Source: Vitreimonas sp. (GTDB lineage: Bacteria; Patescibacteriota; Microgenomatia; UBA1400; PJMF01). From it: a stretch of DNA of 64,000 nucleotides. Below, piece after piece: positions 2,213 to 27,734 of this stretch. Made by a program: the position numbers and the translations under genes. Where the stretch lies: NCBI GenBank assembly GCA_035627515.1, contig DASPLQ010000012.1, positions 970,331 to 1,034,330 of the forward strand. Direction: 5' to 3'. A model generated the notes under the pieces. That model was not told the origin of the DNA. It saw nothing but the letters and a program-made list of their open reading frames with translations, and did no database searches. Within the stretch, counting starts at the first letter, position 1; each line of letters starts with the position of its first letter.

Positions 2213-5200
2213 ATGTCCAAACGAATCACTTTTTTTACTAGCATCAAAATAATTTTACCTTTTATTGCTTTAATGCTGTCGGTAGTTGGTGTGACTTACC
2301 AGTTTAATGGTACTGGTGCTTTTGTTACTTCAGCTGTTCAAGCTGCCAGTAACCTTATTGGTCCTGGTCTTTTCCCAACCCCTTGTACCGAGGGTGAGAA
2401 ATGGTTAGATGAGGTGATTACAGGTCAAACGACCCAAGGACCGTTGAAGAATAACTCTCCAGTCACTGATCCGTTGCGAACTGATCCTACAAAATTGTTG
2501 GGCTCAACCGATAGTGCTTTTTACTCTCTAGGTAAAGCTGGGGTAGTGGTTGCTCGGTTCGAGAACTCGATTGAAGATGGCTCAGGTGATGACTTAGTCA
2601 TCAATGAAGTCACTTTTGGTGATCGTAACACCTATGCAGAAGAGACGGCTTTAGTAGAAGTAAGTCAAGATGGCACGACCTGGTTTGCACTTCCGGAAGC
2701 GGTGACCAGTAAAGCTACTGGTGGTGTGAATGGACTTGATATTTCCAGTACTGGTTTGTCATCAGTCTTATATATCCGTTTAACTGACACTACTAATTTT
2801 GGTCCTCACGACGCCAACGCTGATGGTATTGATATTGAATCAGTACAAGCTATCTACGGCCTCTGTGAAGTCTTACCAGTTGAGTCGGGCTCTATCTCTG
2901 GTGCTAAATACCAAGACAACAACACTAATGGCCAAAAAGATAATGGGGAGAGTGGTTTACAAGGATGGAGTATTTATGCTGGGGTTAAAGTGTGGGAAAG
3001 TGATGTCCAAGCTCAAGATACTCCAGCAGTTAACTCACCAAATCTTGATAACGGTGTTGCATATATTGCGCGAGTCACTGGGACGTACGATGCTGGTGAT
3101 GGTATTAATGCTGATGCTCTGTATTCCTATCGCACACCCACTTCTAGTTCCTGGACTGACGCAGTTAATAGCTACGAAGGTTATGGTCCTACTTTATTAG
3201 ACCTACAAATTGACGGTAGCTCAGTTAGCTGGGGTGATTACAACACTAATCATGTTTATTGGTTGCCATTAACTGGCGCTGGTACCACCAAATCTTTTGA
3301 AATTTATGACCTTAATAATGGTTCTAATAACGCGGGCAACCTCCATGTCGAGTTATTCCGCGTCATTGCTCAAGATATTACCGATGCTACTGGTAATTAC
3401 GATCTCGATTGGTCAGGTTATCCGACGGACACGATTTACCTATTCGAAGGTATGCAAAGTGGCTGGACACAAACCGAGCCCGGTGCAGCTAACTACTATC
3501 ATTCAGTTGCTGCTGATCAACGCGAAAACACCTTCAATTTTGGTAATCAACAAAGTAACGTCAGTGCACCGCAGATTTCCGATGTTACTGTCTGTAAAGT
3601 TGACCAAGCACAACAAGCCCTGAATGGCTGGAAGATGGTGCTTCATCAACCTTCAGTTTTAGAAACAGTGCGTGTTTACCCATCCGATGCCAATGGTGCC
3701 TTCGGCGGCTCAGTTAATCAAATAGTCGCCTCTAGTAACTTAAGTTTGGATGATTACGTCCTGATGGCAAATGGGATGTACACGTACCGCAGTGAGATGA
3801 ATGCGACTAGTAGTGATGCTACCTTCTCACAACGCGCTACTTATGATCCAGTCTATGGTGGTGCATATGCGCCTTGGGTTAACGTCACCACTTTCCCTAA
3901 TCCAAATACGGGTTGGTTAGGAGTGATGGTTAATGGCAGCAGTACCAACTGGGCTAATGCTTACAACCCTGACCATATTTACGCCTTAGGTTATGAAAAT
4001 TACAGTGGTCAATTTAACTTCACTATTCTTGATGACATTTATTCAGACAATAATGGTTACATCGATGTTGCTGTGTACAAAGGATGGGCTCAAGAGACAG
4101 CTAGTAACGGTTGTACGACTTTCCAAGATGTTCCTTATGGTAGTTACACTTTAGAAGAAATTGGTCAAAGTGGTTGGCAATACCAAAGTGGTGACCAAGG
4201 TACAGTCGTTGTCGATGGTGCTACCGAAACCTTTACTTTAGTCAATGCAGCCGTAAATACCAATACTGCTCCTGTTTCTAGCATGACTGTGACCAGTAGT
4301 CCTACAAAACAAATTGAGAATCGAATTTCTAATGGTGGCTTTGAATCAGGCTTGGATAACTGGACACATGTTGGTGATGTAGAAGTCATTAACAGTAGTG
4401 ATGTCAGTGCCGATCCTGCTGTCTTTGGTCAAAAACTGGTTCGCATTGGCCGGCCTACCAGCCCTGGCAACAGTGTGGATGTCAATATCTTGTCACAAGA
4501 TGTCAGCAATGCAGGTAATGGTTTGCGCTCTGTCGGCTTCTGGTACAACTTTAAGACCTTTGAATCAGGTGATGGCTTTGATGAGCCTGGCTTCATGGTT
4601 TTCGTAGGTGATCAGATGGTACACCAAGTATGGGCCAGTGATGTGCTAACAGACAGCAACAGTGCTACCCTCGATGAATCGGGTTGGCAATTCATCTCCA
4701 TTGACTTAACAGACTTGTCTGACTCGACTCTCAGCTTAGCCTTCTATGGTGGAAACTCTGGTGATCTTAGTTATCAGTCATATGTAGAAGTTGATAACGT
4801 CACCACTAATGAAGCCGCTGTAAATGCAGCTGCTGAGTTCACCCTGCAAGCTACCGATAACACTGCCGTCAGTGCCGTTCATTATCGCTACACAGTCGGT
4901 GGTTCGGAAACCCACGTTTCCACTGCCGGTGATACTGTTAACTTCTCCATTACGGCTCAGCCAGACAATGGCATTATCGAGTACTGGGCTGTTGATAGCG
5001 CCAGTATGGAAGAAAATCACAAGAGCTTCCACGTTATGTATGATAATGCAGCGCCCGCAGCTATTGCTAACCTAGATGTTACCGATGATAGTAATGGCGA
5101 CTTTACTTTGACCTGGGTAGCCCCCACAGATGCTAATCCGTATAACCTCGACAAAGCCGCTGAATATGATATCCGCTACGCTACTAATCAAGGGGACTTG

Positions 5201-6289
5201 ACCGCTGCTAACTGGGACAGCTTACCTCAAGCAACAATTAAAAACATCGATGGCTTGCCTGGTGGTGGTACTCGAGCACCTTTAATGTCAGGTAGTACCG
5301 AAGTGTACAGTGTTCACGTCAATGGTAGCTCCAGTGAGTATTGGTTTGCAGTTCGCTCACGAGATCGAGCTCGCAACCTTTCCGATCTCTCAGAGGTTAG
5401 TAGTTCTGGCACCACTAGTACACCAGTCTCAGTTCAAGCTGGCGATGTCATCATTAATGAAGTGATGTGGATGGGTAGCACTACTGGTCCAGCAGATGAG
5501 TGGATTGAGTTGCGCAATATGACTAGTGCTGACATTAACTTAACCAACTGGACAGTTGAAGGCTTAGGAACCGGTGGCGCTTTGACCATTACTTCAGGCA
5601 CCTTACCTGCTAATGGTTACTTCGTCATTGCTAACTCTGCAGCAGCTTCATCTGCCTTACTCAACGAACCTCACTTTGTGACCAGTACTGTTGAGTTAGC
5701 TAACACCGGTGAACAGCTAATTCTCAAAGACAGTAGTGCCGCACTTATCGATCAAACGCCGGCTGGTGTCTGGGCTGCAGGTAGTAATACTGCTCAGAAG
5801 CGATCGATGGAACGCAACAACACTCCTGGTGATGGCAGTGATGTCGCTAATTGGCACAGCTGTGATTCACAAAGCTGTACAGAAGCGCGCTCACTTTATT
5901 GGGACAGTGTAGGGGAGAACTATGGCACACCAAACGCCGCTAACTTATCTTTCACTGAAGCTGAGATAGTGCCTGAAGCTCACTTGACCCAACCTAACCC
6001 TGAGCACGTTTTATTAAGCCTCTCAGGTGTGCAGATCTACACCACTGCTGAATACACTATTGAGTATCAACACGAAGTAGATGGTCAACAGGTCAGTGAT
6101 GCTATTACTGATAAATTGGAGTTTCCATTAACGAGTCGTGATATTAAAACAGCAGAGTTGTTCTTAGGCACCTGTTCTAGCGATGAACAAAGCTGTGTTC
6201 CACACCAAAAAGTCACTTTACTTAAAGCCACAATTACTCTCAAGGCTGAGGGTGTGAGTGACAAAACATTAGCAGTAGAATTAGAATAA
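2213..6289 (+). CDS. Giant (1358 aa) secreted surface or adhesin protein. SipW-cognate-like N-terminus, CnaB/SdrD-B-type repeats, and a C-terminal lamin-tail domain.
   Basis: N-terminus ...VTYQFNGTGAFVTSAVQA. Motif SGAKYQDNNTNGQKDNGESGLQGW is SdrD-B/CnaB-like. LTD motif AGDVIINEVMWMGSTTGPADEWIELRNMTSADINLTNWTV. Confidence 0.6.
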   Translation: MSKRITFFTSIKIILPFIALMLSVVGVTYQFNGTGAFVTSAVQAASNLIGPGLFPTPCTEGEKWLDEVITGQTTQGPLKNNSPVTDPLRTDPTKLLGSTDSAFYSLGKAGVVVARFENSIEDGSGDDLVINEVTFGDRNTYAEETALVEVSQDGTTWFALPEAVTSKATGGVNGLDISSTGLSSVLYIRLTDTTNFGPHDANADGIDIESVQAIYGLCEVLPVESGSISGAKYQDNNTNGQKDNGESGLQGWSIYAGVKVWESDVQAQDTPAVNSPNLDNGVAYIARVTGTYDAGDGINADALYSYRTPTSSSWTDAVNSYEGYGPTLLDLQIDGSSVSWGDYNTNHVYWLPLTGAGTTKSFEIYDLNNGSNNAGNLHVELFRVIAQDITDATGNYDLDWSGYPTDTIYLFEGMQSGWTQTEPGAANYYHSVAADQRENTFNFGNQQSNVSAPQISDVTVCKVDQAQQALNGWKMVLHQPSVLETVRVYPSDANGAFGGSVNQIVASSNLSLDDYVLMANGMYTYRSEMNATSSDATFSQRATYDPVYGGAYAPWVNVTTFPNPNTGWLGVMVNGSSTNWANAYNPDHIYALGYENYSGQFNFTILDDIYSDNNGYIDVAVYKGWAQETASNGCTTFQDVPYGSYTLEEIGQSGWQYQSGDQGTVVVDGATETFTLVNAAVNTNTAPVSSMTVTSSPTKQIENRISNGGFESGLDNWTHVGDVEVINSSDVSADPAVFGQKLVRIGRPTSPGNSVDVNILSQDVSNAGNGLRSVGFWYNFKTFESGDGFDEPGFMVFVGDQMVHQVWASDVLTDSNSATLDESGWQFISIDLTDLSDSTLSLAFYGGNSGDLSYQSYVEVDNVTTNEAAVNAAAEFTLQATDNTAVSAVHYRYTVGGSETHVSTAGDTVNFSITAQPDNGIIEYWAVDSASMEENHKSFHVMYDNAAPAAIANLDVTDDSNGDFTLTWVAPTDANPYNLDKAAEYDIRYATNQGDLTAANWDSLPQATIKNIDGLPGGGTRAPLMSGSTEVYSVHVNGSSSEYWFAVRSRDRARNLSDLSEVSSSGTTSTPVSVQAGDVIINEVMWMGSTTGPADEWIELRNMTSADINLTNWTVEGLGTGGALTITSGTLPANGYFVIANSAAASSALLNEPHFVTSTVELANTGEQLILKDSSAALIDQTPAGVWAAGSNTAQKRSMERNNTPGDGSDVANWHSCDSQSCTEARSLYWDSVGENYGTPNAANLSFTEAEIVPEAHLTQPNPEHVLLSLSGVQIYTTAEYTIEYQHEVDGQQVSDAITDKLEFPLTSRDIKTAELFLGTCSSDEQSCVPHQKVTLLKATITLKAEGVSDKTLAVELE

Positions 6290-23477: not shown

Positions 23478-23795
23478 CTAACTAAGTCTTCCAACTGGTT
23501 CTACCGTGAGATCTTCACTAGTATCCCATGAAGATTGAGCCAGTAGTTCGTAAATGTCTTCTACACTCATTTCCACAGTATCTGCGTCAATGATGGATTT
23601 ATAAACCATGGCAGCGAGTTCTTTATCTGTCAAAATCCTTACTAACTCCATAAACTCAGAATAAACTGAATGAGAGATAGCATCAATGTTAACTTCTAAT
23701 AGATATGCCGCCAGGCTAGCAGGGTTGATTTTTTCCTTGCGATATTTTTCTTCCACCTGTCTAGCAGAAATAGTGGTTTGTCTAATATTTTCCAT
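23478..23795 (-). CDS. Small acidic hypothetical protein (105 aa); third gene of the islet operon
   Basis: RBS AAAGGA upstream. AT-rich. Confidence 0.4.
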   Translation of the reverse strand: MENIRQTTISARQVEEKYRKEKINPASLAAYLLEVNIDAISHSVYSEFMELVRILTDKELAAMVYKSIIDADTVEMSVEDIYELLAQSSWDTSEDLTVEPVGRLS

Positions 23796-23866
23796 AAAAT
23801 CCTTTTTTTTGCCCTCAAGAATTGTACAGGTTCTGTATATCTTGTGCTGACAATTACCTGACAGAA

Positions 23867-24085
23867 TTACTGGACCATCAGTGGTGCAGCGTAAGCCATT
23901 AAAGTACTAAATTCTTCAGCGGCGTCATCATATCCTTTAGTTAATAAATCGATAGTGACAGCATGATAGTCACCACCGTTAGCTTGAGTTTTGGTTAGCT
24001 CTTTTTTGTATGATTTTTCTAACAATGCTAATGCTTCTGCGGCTCCATATTGAGCAGTGGTTTGGGTTTTTACAACTTCGTACAT
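23867..24085 (-). CDS. Small hypothetical protein (72 aa), paralog of the 82-aa protein upstream
   Basis: RBS AAAGGA. Shares K..T..GGDYHAVTIDL with KKVTETGDFYAVIHEV in the neighbour. Confidence 0.4.
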   Translation of the reverse strand: MYEVVKTQTTAQYGAAEALALLEKSYKKELTKTQANGGDYHAVTIDLLTKGYDDAAEEFSTLMAYAAPLMVQ

Positions 24086-24130
24086 AGTGTCCTTTCAGGA
24101 TAATTAATTAATATTTCGACTACTTATAAA

Positions 24131-24376
24131 CTACTCCCACATAAAGGAGGGAACAGGAATTCCTACCTCAGACAACAGTTCACCAAAGATCTCCGCTTTT
24201 AGATGACTTTGATTCTTAGCAACCTCATGAATAACTGCATAAAAATCACCAGTTTCAGTAACTTTTTTATATTCTGGTGCAAACGCATTTTTTAAAGTTT
24301 GCATTGCCAAGGTATATGCCACTACATCTTTTACAAAGAATGAGGTTTCATAAGGTCTGTAGTCCTGATCTTTCAT
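24131..24376 (-). CDS. Small hypothetical protein (82 aa); first gene of the islet operon
   Basis: True start is MKDQDYRP with RBS GGAGAAAGG 6 nt upstream. The longer ORF-track call to 24481 reads through the leader and its terminator. Confidence 0.45.
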   Translation of the reverse strand: MKDQDYRPYETSFFVKDVVAYTLAMQTLKNAFAPEYKKVTETGDFYAVIHEVAKNQSHLKAEIFGELLSEVGIPVPSFMWE

Positions 24377-24532
24377 AATGTTCCTTTCTCCAACAAAAAA
24401 CCCCCCGTTTAGAGCGGGGGGTTGTGGTGTTAAATAAATGTTTACTGTTACGCTGCCACGTTTACCCCGCTCTTGGTCCAAAGGACGAAGAGTTGAATGA
24501 GGGTAATAATGCGGCCAAAGTGTGCCATAACA
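24377..24532 (-). promoter_or_regulatory. 5' leader with an intrinsic terminator and an alternative antiterminator; candidate riboswitch or attenuator
   Basis: On the minus-strand RNA the terminator is CCCCCCG-CUCUAAA-CGGGGGG followed by UUUUUUGUU, just upstream of the RBS. Upstream AGAGCGGGG (+24465..24473) is perfectly complementary over 9 nt to CCCCGCUCU in the terminator 5' strand and loop. Confidence 0.45.
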
Positions 24533-24629: not shown

Positions 24630-24822
24630 CTTTAGTTAATACAAGCGCATGAGCCTACTGACACTAGGCAATTTCCTAAGAGGAAGCGCTGCCAGGGGTA
24701 GCAACCTGGCCGGGTAAGCCCGTGACAGCAGGAAGTAAGTATAAAGAGGTTGGCACCTTTCTGAGCTCCAGAAGCCTTTTCTTAATTCAAGTACAGTCTT
24801 GGGTTGGGAAAAGGCTTTTTTA
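24630..24822 (+). ncRNA. Candidate structured RNA of about 190 nt, possibly SRP RNA (ffs)-like; alternatively a cis-acting aspS leader
   Basis: TATAAT at 24622..24627. Hairpin UUCC-UAAGA-GGAA followed by GCGCUGCCAGG resembles SRP domain IV UCC-GGAA-GGAAGCAGCCAAGG. Ends in an intrinsic terminator (stem AGCCUUUUC/GAAAAGGCU at 24773..24816, then UUUUU). Not verifiable without a covariance model. Confidence 0.35.
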
Positions 24823-24850: not shown

Positions 24851-26725
24851 ATGTCTGATCAGACACGAACCTTTATAAGCGCTAGTCCCTCTAGTGTGGG
24901 CCAGGAAATTTTGCTTCAAGGCTGGGTAGATACCAAACGCGATCACGGTAAAGTCACGTTTATAGATTTGCGTGATCACACCGGGGTGGTCCAGTGTGTG
25001 GGTTACAAGATGATGGGTGAAGTCACCACCGAGTCAGTGGTGGAGCTGGTGGGTTTAGTCAAAGAACGCCCTGCCAACATGGTCAATGACAAAATTGTCA
25101 CCGGAGGAATCGAGATAGAGGTTAAATCTTATACCGTGCTCAACAAAGCTAAAGAACTGCCAATTACTCTTGATAGTGATGGCAAAGATATTGGTGAAGA
25201 AGCGCGTTTAAAGTATCGTTACCTTGACTTACGACGGCCTCGAATGCAACAGATTGTAAAATTGCGGTCGGATTACTTCCGAGCCTTGCGTACTGCTCTC
25301 TATGAACGAGAGTTCACTGAAGTCGAAACGCCGATGCTGACCAAATCTACCAAAGAGGGTGCCCGAGACTTCATCGTACCATCACGGTTTCAACCTGGTA
25401 AATTTTATGCGCTACCACAAAGTCCGCAGCAATATAAACAGTTGTTAATGACTGCTGGCGTATATCGCTACTTTCAGTTTGCACGCTGCATCCGCGACGA
25501 GGACTTGCGCGCTGATCGCGGGTTTGAGTTCACGCAACTGGATGTAGAGCTGAGTTTTGCTAAACAAGATGAGGTGATGCAGACAATTGAGGATGTAGTC
25601 AAGCAAGCTGTTAAAACGGTAGGTGGGAAATTGAAAGATGAAACCTTCCCGGTGGTGGATTATGCAGATGCTATCAAAAAATATGGAGCTGATCGTTTCG
25701 ATTTGCGGACCGAAGCTGAGAAACAAGATGGGACCTTAGCTTTTGCATGGGTAGTGAACTTTCCGTTCTTCAAAAAAGTCGATAAAGGTGACATTGCTGA
25801 AGTGCGTGATGGCAAGAGTGGCTGGACTTTCACCCATAATCCTTTCAGTGCGCCGTTACCGGAGCACGAGGAGTGGTTATTAAAGGGCGAAAACGTGGGC
25901 GAGATCTTAACTACGCAGTACGACTTGGTTTGTAATGGGTATGAAGTAGGTGGCGGCAGTATCAGAGCTCACAAGCCAGAGTTATTAAAAGCCACGTTTA
26001 AAGTCATGGGATATGGTGATCAGGAAATTGAGGACAGCGTGGGACACATGTTAGAAGCGTTTAGTGTGGGTACACCACCTCATGGTGGGTTGGCACTAGG
26101 CTTAGATCGCTTAATCATGTTGTTAGCGGGGGAAACCTCACTCAAAGAAACGATTGCTTTTCCAATGAGCTCTACTGGTCGCACCGCGGTCATGGACGCC
26201 CCCAGCCCTGTCGCCGAAGAACAACTTCAGGAGTTAGGTTTGAGCATTCGAGCTCCTCAGGGTCAACAGACGCCCCACGACTTTATTTTAGATCTCCTCA
26301 AGAAACACCACGTGGAGTATCAGTATCTAGAACATGAACCAGTCACTACTAGCCAAGAGGCTGCTCGGGTTCGAGGTGGTAAGGAACAAGAAGGTGCCAA
26401 GGCATTGGTGATGCAAGCTGATAAAGAGTTTGTGCTGTATGTCCTGCCTGGTGATCAGCGCGCCGATTTAGCTGCCTTCCAAAAGCACCTGGGTGTGAAG
26501 AAGTTAGCGATGGCGTCTACTGATTCTGTCTATCAACGCACCGGTTTGAAAGTAGGCTCCATTCCGCCCTTTGGGTCTTCGATCAAAATGAAAACCTATG
26601 TCGATAGCCGACTGGCTGCCAACGAACAGATTGCCTTCAACGTTGGCCGGCATGATCGATCGGTGATCATGAAGTATGCCGACTATGTAGCGGTGGAAAA
26701 ACCAGAAGTAGTGAATATTGGCTAA
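24851..26725 (+). CDS. aspS: Aspartyl-tRNA synthetase, bacterial type but lacking the GAD insertion, fused to a C-terminal YbaK/ProX-like aminoacyl-tRNA deacylase domain
   Basis: RBS AGGAG. N-terminal OB domain. Motif 2 FYALPQSPQQYKQLLM...FARCIRDEDLRADR. Motif 3 GGGSIRAHK...GLALGLDRLIMLL. Bacterial C-terminus ETIAFPMSSTGRTAVMDAPSPV. An extra ~155 aa: EHEPVTTSQEAARVRG...ALVMQADKEFVLYVLPGDQRADL...GLKVGSIPPFG. Confidence 0.85.
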   Translation: MSDQTRTFISASPSSVGQEILLQGWVDTKRDHGKVTFIDLRDHTGVVQCVGYKMMGEVTTESVVELVGLVKERPANMVNDKIVTGGIEIEVKSYTVLNKAKELPITLDSDGKDIGEEARLKYRYLDLRRPRMQQIVKLRSDYFRALRTALYEREFTEVETPMLTKSTKEGARDFIVPSRFQPGKFYALPQSPQQYKQLLMTAGVYRYFQFARCIRDEDLRADRGFEFTQLDVELSFAKQDEVMQTIEDVVKQAVKTVGGKLKDETFPVVDYADAIKKYGADRFDLRTEAEKQDGTLAFAWVVNFPFFKKVDKGDIAEVRDGKSGWTFTHNPFSAPLPEHEEWLLKGENVGEILTTQYDLVCNGYEVGGGSIRAHKPELLKATFKVMGYGDQEIEDSVGHMLEAFSVGTPPHGGLALGLDRLIMLLAGETSLKETIAFPMSSTGRTAVMDAPSPVAEEQLQELGLSIRAPQGQQTPHDFILDLLKKHHVEYQYLEHEPVTTSQEAARVRGGKEQEGAKALVMQADKEFVLYVLPGDQRADLAAFQKHLGVKKLAMASTDSVYQRTGLKVGSIPPFGSSIKMKTYVDSRLAANEQIAFNVGRHDRSVIMKYADYVAVEKPEVVNIG

Positions 26726-26777: not shown

Positions 26778-27734
26778 GTGAAAAAGATTCGCCTTGATCA
26801 ATGGCTAGCGATCGGTTTAATTTGTGTGGGGTTACTGACCTCACAACTAACTCCACTGACGGCTGCGCCTGGCACCACCTTTCAACCCCTGACTTTAGTC
26901 GCTCCGGCGCCGTTGCCAGTACTACGGTCAGATGCTCCAGAGTTGGCTTCACTCCTAACAGCCGAAAGTGTGATGGTGATTGATGTGCCATCGGGTTCAG
27001 TATTGTTTGAAAAAAATGCTGAGCAACTTCGTTATCCTGCTTCAACTACCAAAATGATGACAGCACTGATCGCAAGTGAGTCATATCAGATGGATCATAT
27101 TTTGACCGTAGGTGAAGAGGCGTTGATCGAAGGGACTGTCATGGGTCTGCAACTCAATGAACAAATTCCGGTGCGTGATGTGTTACATGGATTGCTGTTG
27201 ACCTCTGGTAATGATGCAGCTTTTTTGTTGGCTAATCATTACCCTCAAGGTGGTTACCAAGGGTTTATGTATCGCATGAACCAGAGAGCACAGCAGCTGC
27301 ATTTAGATAATACTCACTTTATCAATCCCTCAGGTTTAGACGCCGAGGGCCAAACGTCATCAGCGCGAGATTTACTACTGTTGGCCAAAGAGCTAATGAA
27401 AAATCCACTTTTGCGTGAGATCGTCGGCACACGCCAATATACGGCCAGTGACCTGAGTGGTGAGATCCAGCACCAGCTTGTTTCAAGCAATCATTTTTTA
27501 GGGATTGAGCCCGGTGTGATTGGCGTAAAAACTGGCACTACCCCATTGGCAGGCGAAATCTTAATTTCCGAGGTGCAGCAACAGCAGCGGGATGTGCTAA
27601 TTGCGGTATTAGGCAGTAGTGATCGTTATGGTGATACGCAGCAGATCTTACGCTGGCTTTGGCAATCATACGAGTGGCAAGAACTTACCCATCCCACCCA
27701 AAGTTCCCAGTTGCCAGATAGTACTCATCAATAA
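26778..27734 (+). CDS. Serine-type D-Ala-D-Ala carboxypeptidase (S11, PBP5/DacA family); GTG start
   Basis: SXXK motif RYPASTTKMMTA, SGN motif LLTSGNDAA, KTG motif GVKTGTT. Signal peptide. Confidence 0.75.
   Translation: MKKIRLDQWLAIGLICVGLLTSQLTPLTAAPGTTFQPLTLVAPAPLPVLRSDAPELASLLTAESVMVIDVPSGSVLFEKNAEQLRYPASTTKMMTALIASESYQMDHILTVGEEALIEGTVMGLQLNEQIPVRDVLHGLLLTSGNDAAFLLANHYPQGGYQGFMYRMNQRAQQLHLDNTHFINPSGLDAEGQTSSARDLLLLAKELMKNPLLREIVGTRQYTASDLSGEIQHQLVSSNHFLGIEPGVIGVKTGTTPLAGEILISEVQQQQRDVLIAVLGSSDRYGDTQQILRWLWQSYEWQELTHPTQSSQLPDSTHQ

Follow-up and report, generated by a model that had tools for sequence, protein, structure and literature searches.

The 64,000-nucleotide stretch of DNA analyzed here (contig DASPLQ010000012.1, positions 970,331 to 1,034,330; hereafter the window) carries an aspS gene whose product, a bacterial-type aspartyl-tRNA synthetase (AspRS) without the GAD insertion, continues at its C-terminus into a domain of the INS/YbaK superfamily of aminoacyl-tRNA deacylases. 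The same architecture recurs in relatives, the active site of the appended domain is conserved, and the domain is genetically linked to AspRS well beyond this gene. Our tentative interpretation, held with slightly less than even confidence, is that a deacylase has been tethered to a probably non-discriminating AspRS, where it would clear a product of that synthetase, with Asp-tRNA(Asn) as the leading candidate substrate.

The gene is a single unbroken open reading frame (ORF) on the forward strand (24851..26725), encoding 624 residues, with an ATG start and an AGGAG motif 8 nt 5' of it. Pfam recognized tRNA_anti-codon (PF01336) at residues 21-97, tRNA-synt_2 (PF00152) at residues 116-440 (E=4.5e-105, contiguous over positions 2-307 of the 308-position model), and tRNA_edit (PF04073) at residues 495-613 (E=2.3e-29; 102.4 bits against a gathering threshold of 25.5). 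The last match is the one that a preliminary description of the gene, made from the sequence alone, had proposed to look for in the C-terminal part. The identical protein is found in NCBI on a 1.41 Mb contig, and more than 100 protein clusters from NCBI, JGI, ENA, and Logan contain the same three Pfam domains in proteins of 611-637 residues, at 59-75% identity (clusters were defined at the 90% identity level, and here and below "more than 100" is a lower bound). The fusion is also in frame in seven GTDB species representatives. The carriers that bear a name are Woesebacteria, Dojkabacteria/WS6, Beckwithbacteria, and "Patescibacteria group". Natural split versions with very short gaps do exist (see below), but that an assembly or sequencing error or a frameshift joined two genes here is practically excluded by the continuous frame and by the recurrence of the fusion, both in independent clusters that span four data sources and in the GTDB representatives, so the proposed single polypeptide stands. 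The earlier remark that such a fusion is unusual outside the prolyl-tRNA synthetase (ProRS) lineage agrees with the literature but not with metagenomic data, where it is common. Public annotations of the fused proteins read aspartate--tRNA ligase or "amino acid--tRNA ligase-related protein". The NCBI record of the exact protein is labeled Vitreimonas sp., and many close relatives (third-party annotation records of metagenome-assembled genomes) are labeled Pseudomonadales, Gammaproteobacteria, or Acidiferrales; gene content and the nearest named relatives are those of Patescibacteria, and all four labels are probably automatic taxonomy or binning errors.

The synthetase part scored 578.5 bits against the bacterial aspS equivalog NF001750 of NCBIfam (cutoff 443), matching in two stretches, and 500.3 bits against the bacterial-type model TIGR00459 (cutoff 373.85), whereas the archaeal-type model NF003483 gave 225 bits. 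The OB domain, motifs 1-3, and C-terminal segment of a bacterial-type AspRS, all recognized in the preliminary description, were recovered by Pfam, NCBIfam, and alignments. Columns of the catalytic core are invariant across the family. The bacteria-specific C-terminal extension after motif 3 is present and aligns to the ends of the Mycobacterium smegmatis and Escherichia coli enzymes, and the point at which E. coli AspRS ends is where the extra domain begins. The absence of GAD was likewise borne out. Pfam found no match to PF02938 in the 624-residue protein, and in alignments with M. smegmatis and M. tuberculosis AspRS, query residues 8-297 correspond to residues 29-319 and query residues 294-468 to residues 437-607, such that about 118 residues are absent relative to mycobacterial AspRS (including 4O2D). 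Similarly, the block that E. coli AspRS carries between DKPDLR and ...DFPMFE is missing. The junction reads RFDLRTEAEKQDGTLAFAWV, the direct jump first described.

To place this deletion, we used 80 related loci from Microgenomates-, Parcubacteria-, and Saccharibacteria-type genomes, obtained in a scan of GTDB species representatives. All 80 encode a GAD-less bacterial-type AspRS of roughly 460 residues, and the editing domain is missing from most of them. A loss of GAD peculiar to this gene was thus ruled out, and the loss is independent of the editing domain, since most GAD-less loci do without the latter. In this sample, the loss characterizes the entire radiation. Because GAD is missing from all 80 loci, the window enzyme represents a GAD-less subtype of the bacterial family rather than a non-member; its lack of GAD is a secondary deletion. 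The preliminary description had compared the loss with that in some non-discriminating AspRSs. The loss itself is real, but the comparison was imprecise: the solved bacterial-type enzymes deposited as Asp/Asn ligases (4RMF, 5W25, and 4WJ3; 599-616 residues) align to the query in two separate stretches, between which the query lacks a segment the size of GAD. To our knowledge, the GAD-less non-discriminating AspRSs described so far are all archaeal-type. The full-length AlphaFold model has a mean predicted local distance difference test (pLDDT) score of 86.6; it is low (56-78) at residues 441-480, which are also the least conserved stretch of the fused protein. The low confidence fits a flexible linker some 35 residues long.

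The domain that follows this linker is most likely an INS/YbaK-superfamily aminoacyl-tRNA deacylase, predicted to be catalytically competent. The AlphaFold model of residues 470-624 has a pLDDT of 96.3, and Foldseek matched it to ProXp-x (2CX5/2Z0K), lpg1207 (3OP6), YbaK (1DBU/2DXA), and APE2540 (1WDV) with template modeling scores of 0.80-0.85. Together with the PF04073 match, this upholds the earlier assignment of the C-terminal ~155 residues to the YbaK/ProX family, with the refinement that the domain is neither YbaK nor ProXp-ala proper. By sequence, the nearest solved relative is Legionella lpg1207 (3OP6; E=5.8e-15), with which it shares an FNAG.H motif; further matches are YbaK (5.5e-9) and Caulobacter crescentus ProXp-ala (5VXB; E=2.4e-3, 21.6 bits), which ranks lowest among the structural matches as well. 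YbaK proper, the Cys-tRNA(Pro) deacylase, was rejected because the domain falls below both equivalog cutoffs (TIGR00011, 71.5 against 153.25 bits; NF007951, 27.6 against 243 bits), and ProXp-ala was rejected on its weak match to 5VXB. Stand-alone relatives of the domain also reach merely 48-75 bits against the YbaK equivalog, and the ProRS model NF006625 gave 32.9 bits (cutoff 558). By these comparisons, the domain belongs to an uncharacterized clade whose nearest solved member is lpg1207. A catalytic Lys and a GXXXP loop are universal features of the superfamily according to the Musier-Forsyth laboratory (PMC11286415), and correspond here to K517 and G569-S-I-P-P573. Across 107 fused proteins, little or no variation is seen at K517, the G569..P573 loop, G575, H495, and S501, and the editing domain is conserved about as much as the OB domain. 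An exhaustive HMMER search with the editing domain returned 3246 relatives, mostly single-domain proteins of 150-165 residues. Other architectures in the clade include three tandem tRNA_edit matches (P0123, 448 residues, Pfam-confirmed), three matched tRNA_edit stretches (P0131, 491 residues), and a WD40 beta-propeller with a C-terminal tRNA_edit domain (P0220, 691 residues).

Genomic context couples this deacylase clade to AspRS recurrently, whether fused, split and adjacent, or on three non-orthologous AspRS bodies. The commonest arrangement, which is that of the window, is the fusion with GAD-less bacterial AspRS followed by a Peptidase_S11 gene. In a second arrangement, the aspS stop codon is followed after 5-20 nt by a separate domain gene and then by S11 (P0121, P0124, and P0130, the closest stand-alone homologs of the editing domain, and the WWE3 locus L020). 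The domain gene follows aspS at a longer gap in the Doudnabacteria locus L062, where no S11 match was found, and a P-type ATPase gene separates the two in the case of P0126. In a third arrangement, aspS lies on the opposite strand, divergent from a gene in which the domain is fused to S11 (P0239 and P0209, the latter at L004 5309-6769 and L005 1986-3446, beside a GAD-less aspS). These proteins consist of a tRNA_edit domain, a Lys-rich segment, a transmembrane helix, and Peptidase_S11, and are predicted to be membrane-anchored aminoacyl-tRNA deacylases with a cytoplasmic deacylase and an extracytoplasmic S11 part. Fourth, the domain is cleanly absent, with unchanged synteny, in a lineage whose AspRS part is 77% identical to that of the window. 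Fifth, an archaeal-type AspRS carries the same domain (P0125, L008 3350-5158; also P0127); P0125 scored 508 bits against the "aspartate--tRNA(Asn) ligase" equivalog (NF003483/TIGR00458; cutoff 353). Gene order at L008 is that of the window, with a CCA-adding enzyme (-), RecJ (+), the aspS-domain fusion (+), and S11 (+), which suggests either that the synthetase body was exchanged in place or that the fusion arose repeatedly. Sixth, a GAD-containing bacterial AspRS carries the domain in more than 100 clusters, the taxon-named ones being labeled Candidatus Woesearchaeota or Nanoarchaeota (DPANN archaea). In two loci of the P0411 family (L099 10001-20389 and L100 734-11122), a gatC-peptidyl-prolyl isomerase-gatA-gatB cluster lies 4.5 kb downstream of the fused gene. 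The presence of a bacterial-type AspRS in archaea so labeled suggests inter-domain transfer between two ultra-small radiations. Apart from AspRS, the 150 best representatives showed the domain joined only to S11, to a WD40 protein, or to further copies of itself in tandem, and no fusion to any other synthetase was found.

Indirect evidence suggests that the AspRS of the window is probably non-discriminating. Its OB domain has His at position 32, which reportedly matters for discrimination (Bernard et al. 2006): discriminating enzymes have Leu there, and a non-hydrophobic residue such as His would point to a non-discriminating enzyme. In an alignment of fused proteins, 55 of 55 share this His. 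The position could be scored in 79 of the 80 related loci: all nine edit-linked AspRSs have His, 68 others have His or Gln, and only two (L043 and L047) have Met, both of them beside an asparaginyl-tRNA synthetase (AsnRS) gene (540 and 512 bits; equivalog cutoff 414). The discriminating E. coli AspRS has Leu at the equivalent position, and the mycobacterial enzymes 4RMF and 5W25 read RDHGG there. Met as opposed to His or Gln at this position may be a marker that divides discriminating from non-discriminating AspRS in the Patescibacteria radiation. The two AsnRS genes occur in Parcubacteria-type genomes, one immediately upstream of aspS (L043 10007-11302) and the other about 2.6 kb upstream (L047 6043-7425); a truncated AsnRS also lies close to aspS at L071 (8469-9566), where position 32 is not scorable. 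A Patescibacteria AsnRS query against a large protein collection returned only Falkowbacteria- and Komeilibacteria-type matches. Motif scans and tblastn with a real GatCAB over 1.57 Mb of retrieved loci, aimed at asnS, gatCAB, and dtd, yielded none in the bacterial loci; the result is uninformative since a single locus represents some 2% of its genome, and so is the motif scan for dtd, which covered 1.4 Mb. Archaea possess GatCAB solely where AsnRS is absent, and the enzyme acts on Asp-tRNA(Asn) (PMC2330236). Legionella pneumophila, the owner of lpg1207, has an experimentally non-discriminating AspRS as well as AsnRS and GatCAB; the E. coli trpA34 assay served there as the test for aspartylation of tRNA(Asn) (PMC4206432).

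We propose the following mechanism. The cell's AspRS, a dimeric and probably non-discriminating enzyme encoded by this gene, would make both Asp-tRNA(Asp) and Asp-tRNA(Asn), the latter destined for GatCAB. The INS-type domain would position the aminoacyl ester via K517 and the GSIPP loop and hydrolyze an erroneous or surplus AspRS product, most likely Asp-tRNA(Asn) that transamidation has missed. Cleavage of Asp-tRNA(Asn) might proceed by side-chain-assisted cyclization, analogous to the chemistry of YbaK on Cys. Discrimination at the acceptor stem and/or protection by EF-Tu would leave Asp-tRNA(Asp) intact. Because class II synthetases release their products fast, and because the domain also occurs separately or anchored to S11, we infer that it would work mostly in trans, on tRNA that has already left the synthetase, and that the tether would keep it beside the source. 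Indirect support for proofreading of Asp-tRNA(Asn) comes from His32, from the occurrence of the domain on the archaeal-type "aspartate--tRNA(Asn) ligase", and from the GatCAB genes beside the fused DPANN gene. Moreover, attachment of an Asp-tRNA(Asn)-processing module to the C-terminus of AspRS is already known from the AspRS-GatC fusions described by the NCBIfam model NF009460. A precedent for hydrolysis of an excess intermediate is Helicobacter pylori GluRS2, which hydrolyzes excess Glu-tRNA(Gln) (PMC3241645).

Several observations weigh against this proposal. Substrate specificity is not readable from sequence, and it seems wasteful to hydrolyze an intermediate that the indirect pathway cannot do without. 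Cells can dispense with the domain, which has been lost in the 77%-identical AspRS lineage with synteny intact, and more distant family members (P0234 and P0135) are not near aspS. The His32 signature is a lead, and at most of the retrieved Patescibacteria loci whose AspRS has His32 or Gln32, the editing domain is missing. Within the 64 kb window, neither asnS, gatA, gatB, gatC, nor dtd was found by Pfam and NCBIfam searches of most ORFs of at least 150 residues and by reading the other translations. The neighbor-joining tree of editing domains is star-like, without resolution, and is therefore compatible both with one origin and with several fusions. Finally, the characterized superfamily members act on errors of ProRS or on Ser, Thr, or alpha-aminobutyrate (Abu) errors (PMC11286415, PMC11295145).

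This last point leads to the most serious alternative, which we nevertheless regard as unlikely: a generic trans-editing factor that happens to reside on AspRS and whose substrates would be tRNA(Pro) charged with Ala, Cys, or Abu, or tRNAs mischarged with Ser or Thr. Its place at aspS would be inherited operon structure, from which the easy loss of a stop codon would yield fusions. Such a factor would match the activities of all characterized INS members, and structurally the domain is no closer to any one of ProXp-x, YbaK, and APE2540 than to the others; it also occurs detached or fused to S11, is lost in close relatives, and has family members elsewhere that are not linked to aspS. The order aspS, Peptidase_S11 is kept across very divergent Patescibacteria (L010-L089), with or without the editing domain, S11 lying 150 nt to 3 kb downstream of aspS in most loci; no S11 neighbor was present in the archaeal loci L099 and L100. 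As this synteny is old and widespread, the linkage of the domain to aspS can be historical. A generic factor accounts poorly, however, for the attachment of the same clade, in both bacteria and archaea, to three AspRS bodies that are not orthologous, for the lack of any other synthetase partner among the 150 best representatives, and for scores far under the YbaK and ProRS-INS cutoffs, with only a weak match to ProXp-ala (5VXB). A functional link to the S11 carboxypeptidase was also considered and set aside as synteny plus a topologically permissive fusion, the cytoplasmic domain preceding the membrane anchor.

Returning to the proposal of an AspRS-product deacylase, it is possible, though we consider it less likely than not, that the domain founds a new INS specificity class acting on Asp-tRNA(Asn) or D-Asp-tRNA(Asp), repeatedly selected and probably exchanged between the candidate phyla radiation (CPR) and DPANN. 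Three superfamily clusters, ProXp-7, -8, and -9, are still orphan (PMC11295145).

The region upstream of aspS contains what appears to be a compact T-box-like leader sensing tRNA(Asp). Its specifier hairpin is short, with a UGACA loop (GAC, an Asp codon, plus A) and stems that covary between loci, and two further conserved hairpins show compensatory changes. The T-box motif is AGAGGUUGGCACC / GGUUGGCACC, in which UGGC would pair with 3'-GCCA (G73-CCA). Its core, GGUGGCACC, is invariant in 13 of 13 aligned aspS leaders from diverse loci, and the leader is also found upstream of aspS in L013 (9806-9933), L014, L018, L027, L040, L092, L001, L011, L030, L055, and L066. The Rfam T-box model RF00230 gave no match in the window leader even at E<=10; upstream of the fused aspS of the Dojkabacteria locus L013, it gave a sub-threshold match (47.5 bits, gathering 93; E=2e-9). 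Our literature search found no paper linking T-box riboswitches with Patescibacteria or CPR. Given the GAC specifier, expression would follow the charging of tRNA(Asp), not of tRNA(Asn).

A leader that seems to sense tRNA(Asp) would suit an editing function on tRNA(Asp) itself, in which the domain removes D-Asp or an analog (beta-linked or hydroxylated Asp) and thereby replaces or supplements D-aminoacyl-tRNA deacylase in genome-reduced, amino-acid-scavenging symbionts. D-Asp-tRNA(Asp) is reportedly a studied species, as it figures as a term in papers on D-aminoacyl-tRNA deacylase. The AspRS-specific linkage, which favors an AspRS product as the substrate, and the persistent adjacency to a D-Ala-D-Ala carboxypeptidase gene point the same way. 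We nonetheless consider this function improbable: the S11 neighbor is extracytoplasmic, its adjacency is explained by synteny, and we know of no chirality-selective member of the INS superfamily. More doubtful still is a non-catalytic tRNA-binding or chaperone module that replaces GAD and might, for instance, retain Asp-tRNA(Asn) until GatCAB takes it over. GAD has been proposed to trap Asp-tRNA(Asn) beside the active site (PMC3367201), and in the window protein GAD is gone and a fold that binds the tRNA acceptor is added; yet the catalytic Lys and the GXXXP loop are invariant, the Woesearchaeota-labeled enzymes have GAD and the domain together, and most of the retrieved GAD-less Patescibacteria AspRSs lack the domain, which makes such a role very unlikely.

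Table 1. Features of the aspS locus, in window coordinates.
Feature	Position	Strand	Basis
Whole ORF: GAD-less bacterial-type AspRS with INS/YbaK-superfamily domain, 624 residues	24851..26725	+	Pfam, NCBIfam, homologs
N-terminal OB-fold anticodon-binding domain, residues 21-97; His32 (24944-24946) within RDHGK	24911..25141	+	PF01336
Class II catalytic core, residues 116-440, motifs 1-3	25196..26170	+	PF00152
Junction at the expected GAD insertion site (RFDLRTEAEKQDGTLAFAWV)	25694..25753	+	Alignments; no PF02938
Bacterial AspRS C-terminal extension and low-confidence linker, residues 441-480	26171..26290	+	Alignments, AlphaFold pLDDT
INS/YbaK-superfamily editing domain (predicted), residues 481-624; Lys517 (26399-26401), GSIPP (26555-26569), His495 (26333-26335)	26291..26722	+	PF04073, fold
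Peptidase_S11 (D-Ala-D-Ala carboxypeptidase) gene with N-terminal membrane anchor, conserved neighbor	26778..27734	+	Pfam, synteny
Compact T-box-like structured leader, within the 370-nt region upstream of the gene	24652..24822	+	Motif and structure conservation
Overlapping 20-bp terminator hairpin, then U-run, 33 nt before the ATG	24772-24817	+	Terminator scan
Three small ORFs (105, 72, and 116 residues) between RecJ and aspS	23478-24481	-	ORF calls

The features of the locus are collected in Table 1. A terminator-like hairpin (24423-24399, reverse strand) lies inside the third of the small ORFs, and no gene is called between RecJ and aspS in relatives such as L008, L090, and L092. Elsewhere in the window, positions 39883-63804 hold a long run of predicted membrane glycosyltransferase/PMT-like proteins, GT2 enzymes, an epimerase-like protein, and a flippase-like protein, which appears to be a large cell-envelope glycosylation cluster, and positions 2213-6289 encode a surface protein of 1358 residues with LTD/SpaA domains.

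Joining a synthetase to an editing domain is known in kind; the AspRS partner is new, and the specificity is probably new. The ProRS-INS proteins and the N-terminal ProXp-ala-ProRS fusions of Plasmodium and Trypanosoma likewise combine a class II synthetase and an INS/YbaK deacylase in one polypeptide. Their deacylases share the conserved Lys and GXXXP loop with the window domain (PMC11286415), and the trypanosome fusion has a disordered linker, its authors expecting mainly trans editing. In the window, however, the partner is AspRS, and the domain follows the synthetase instead of being inserted into it or preceding it, and belongs to a different clade. YbaK, ProXp-x (2CX5), and lpg1207 (3OP6) have the same fold, and the split forms are likewise single-domain proteins of 150-165 residues; unlike these, the window domain is tied genetically to aspS, not to proS. 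The AspRS-GatC fusion is also a bacterial-type AspRS extended C-terminally by a module that handles Asp-tRNA(Asn). Its GatC module recruits the amidotransferase and is productive, whereas the window domain has a hydrolase fold and would be corrective; indeed, the window protein scored 377.9 bits against NF009460 (cutoff 1379), over the AspRS part only. H. pylori GluRS2 is a conceptual precedent, as a synthetase of an indirect pathway in which a surplus misacylated intermediate is removed. It differs in class and amino acid, and the activity is ascribed to GluRS2 itself, the abstract naming no separate editing domain (PMC3241645). Archaeal-type non-discriminating AspRS (NF003483/TIGR00458) also has no GAD and is fused to the same deacylase in some Patescibacteria-type loci (P0125), whereas the window enzyme is bacterial-type. 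Our literature search found no paper on an AspRS-YbaK/INS fusion or on AspRS-associated editing, and nothing on point for GAD-less AspRS in Patescibacteria, for AspRS editing in CPR, or for the GatCAB/AsnRS content of CPR.

The threefold association with AspRS across CPR and DPANN would surprise a specialist and would be directly testable, with the fused, split, membrane-anchored, and absent forms as natural controls. That a deacylase has been joined to three unrelated AspRS scaffolds in genome-minimal organisms suggests an extra fidelity step that is paid for despite gene loss. The indirect asparagine pathway is thought to be safeguarded by channeling in the transamidosome and by rejection by EF-Tu. 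Identifying the substrate would show whether cells actively remove the misacylated tRNAs that indirect pathways produce as intermediates. It would also extend the known specificities of the INS superfamily, in which ProXp-7, -8, -9 and lpg1207 are orphans, and offer a way into the function of translation in CPR and DPANN organisms. If the domain is indeed an AspRS-product deacylase, AspRS would have a partner for proofreading, and hydrolysis would serve as a safety valve for tRNA-dependent asparagine formation.

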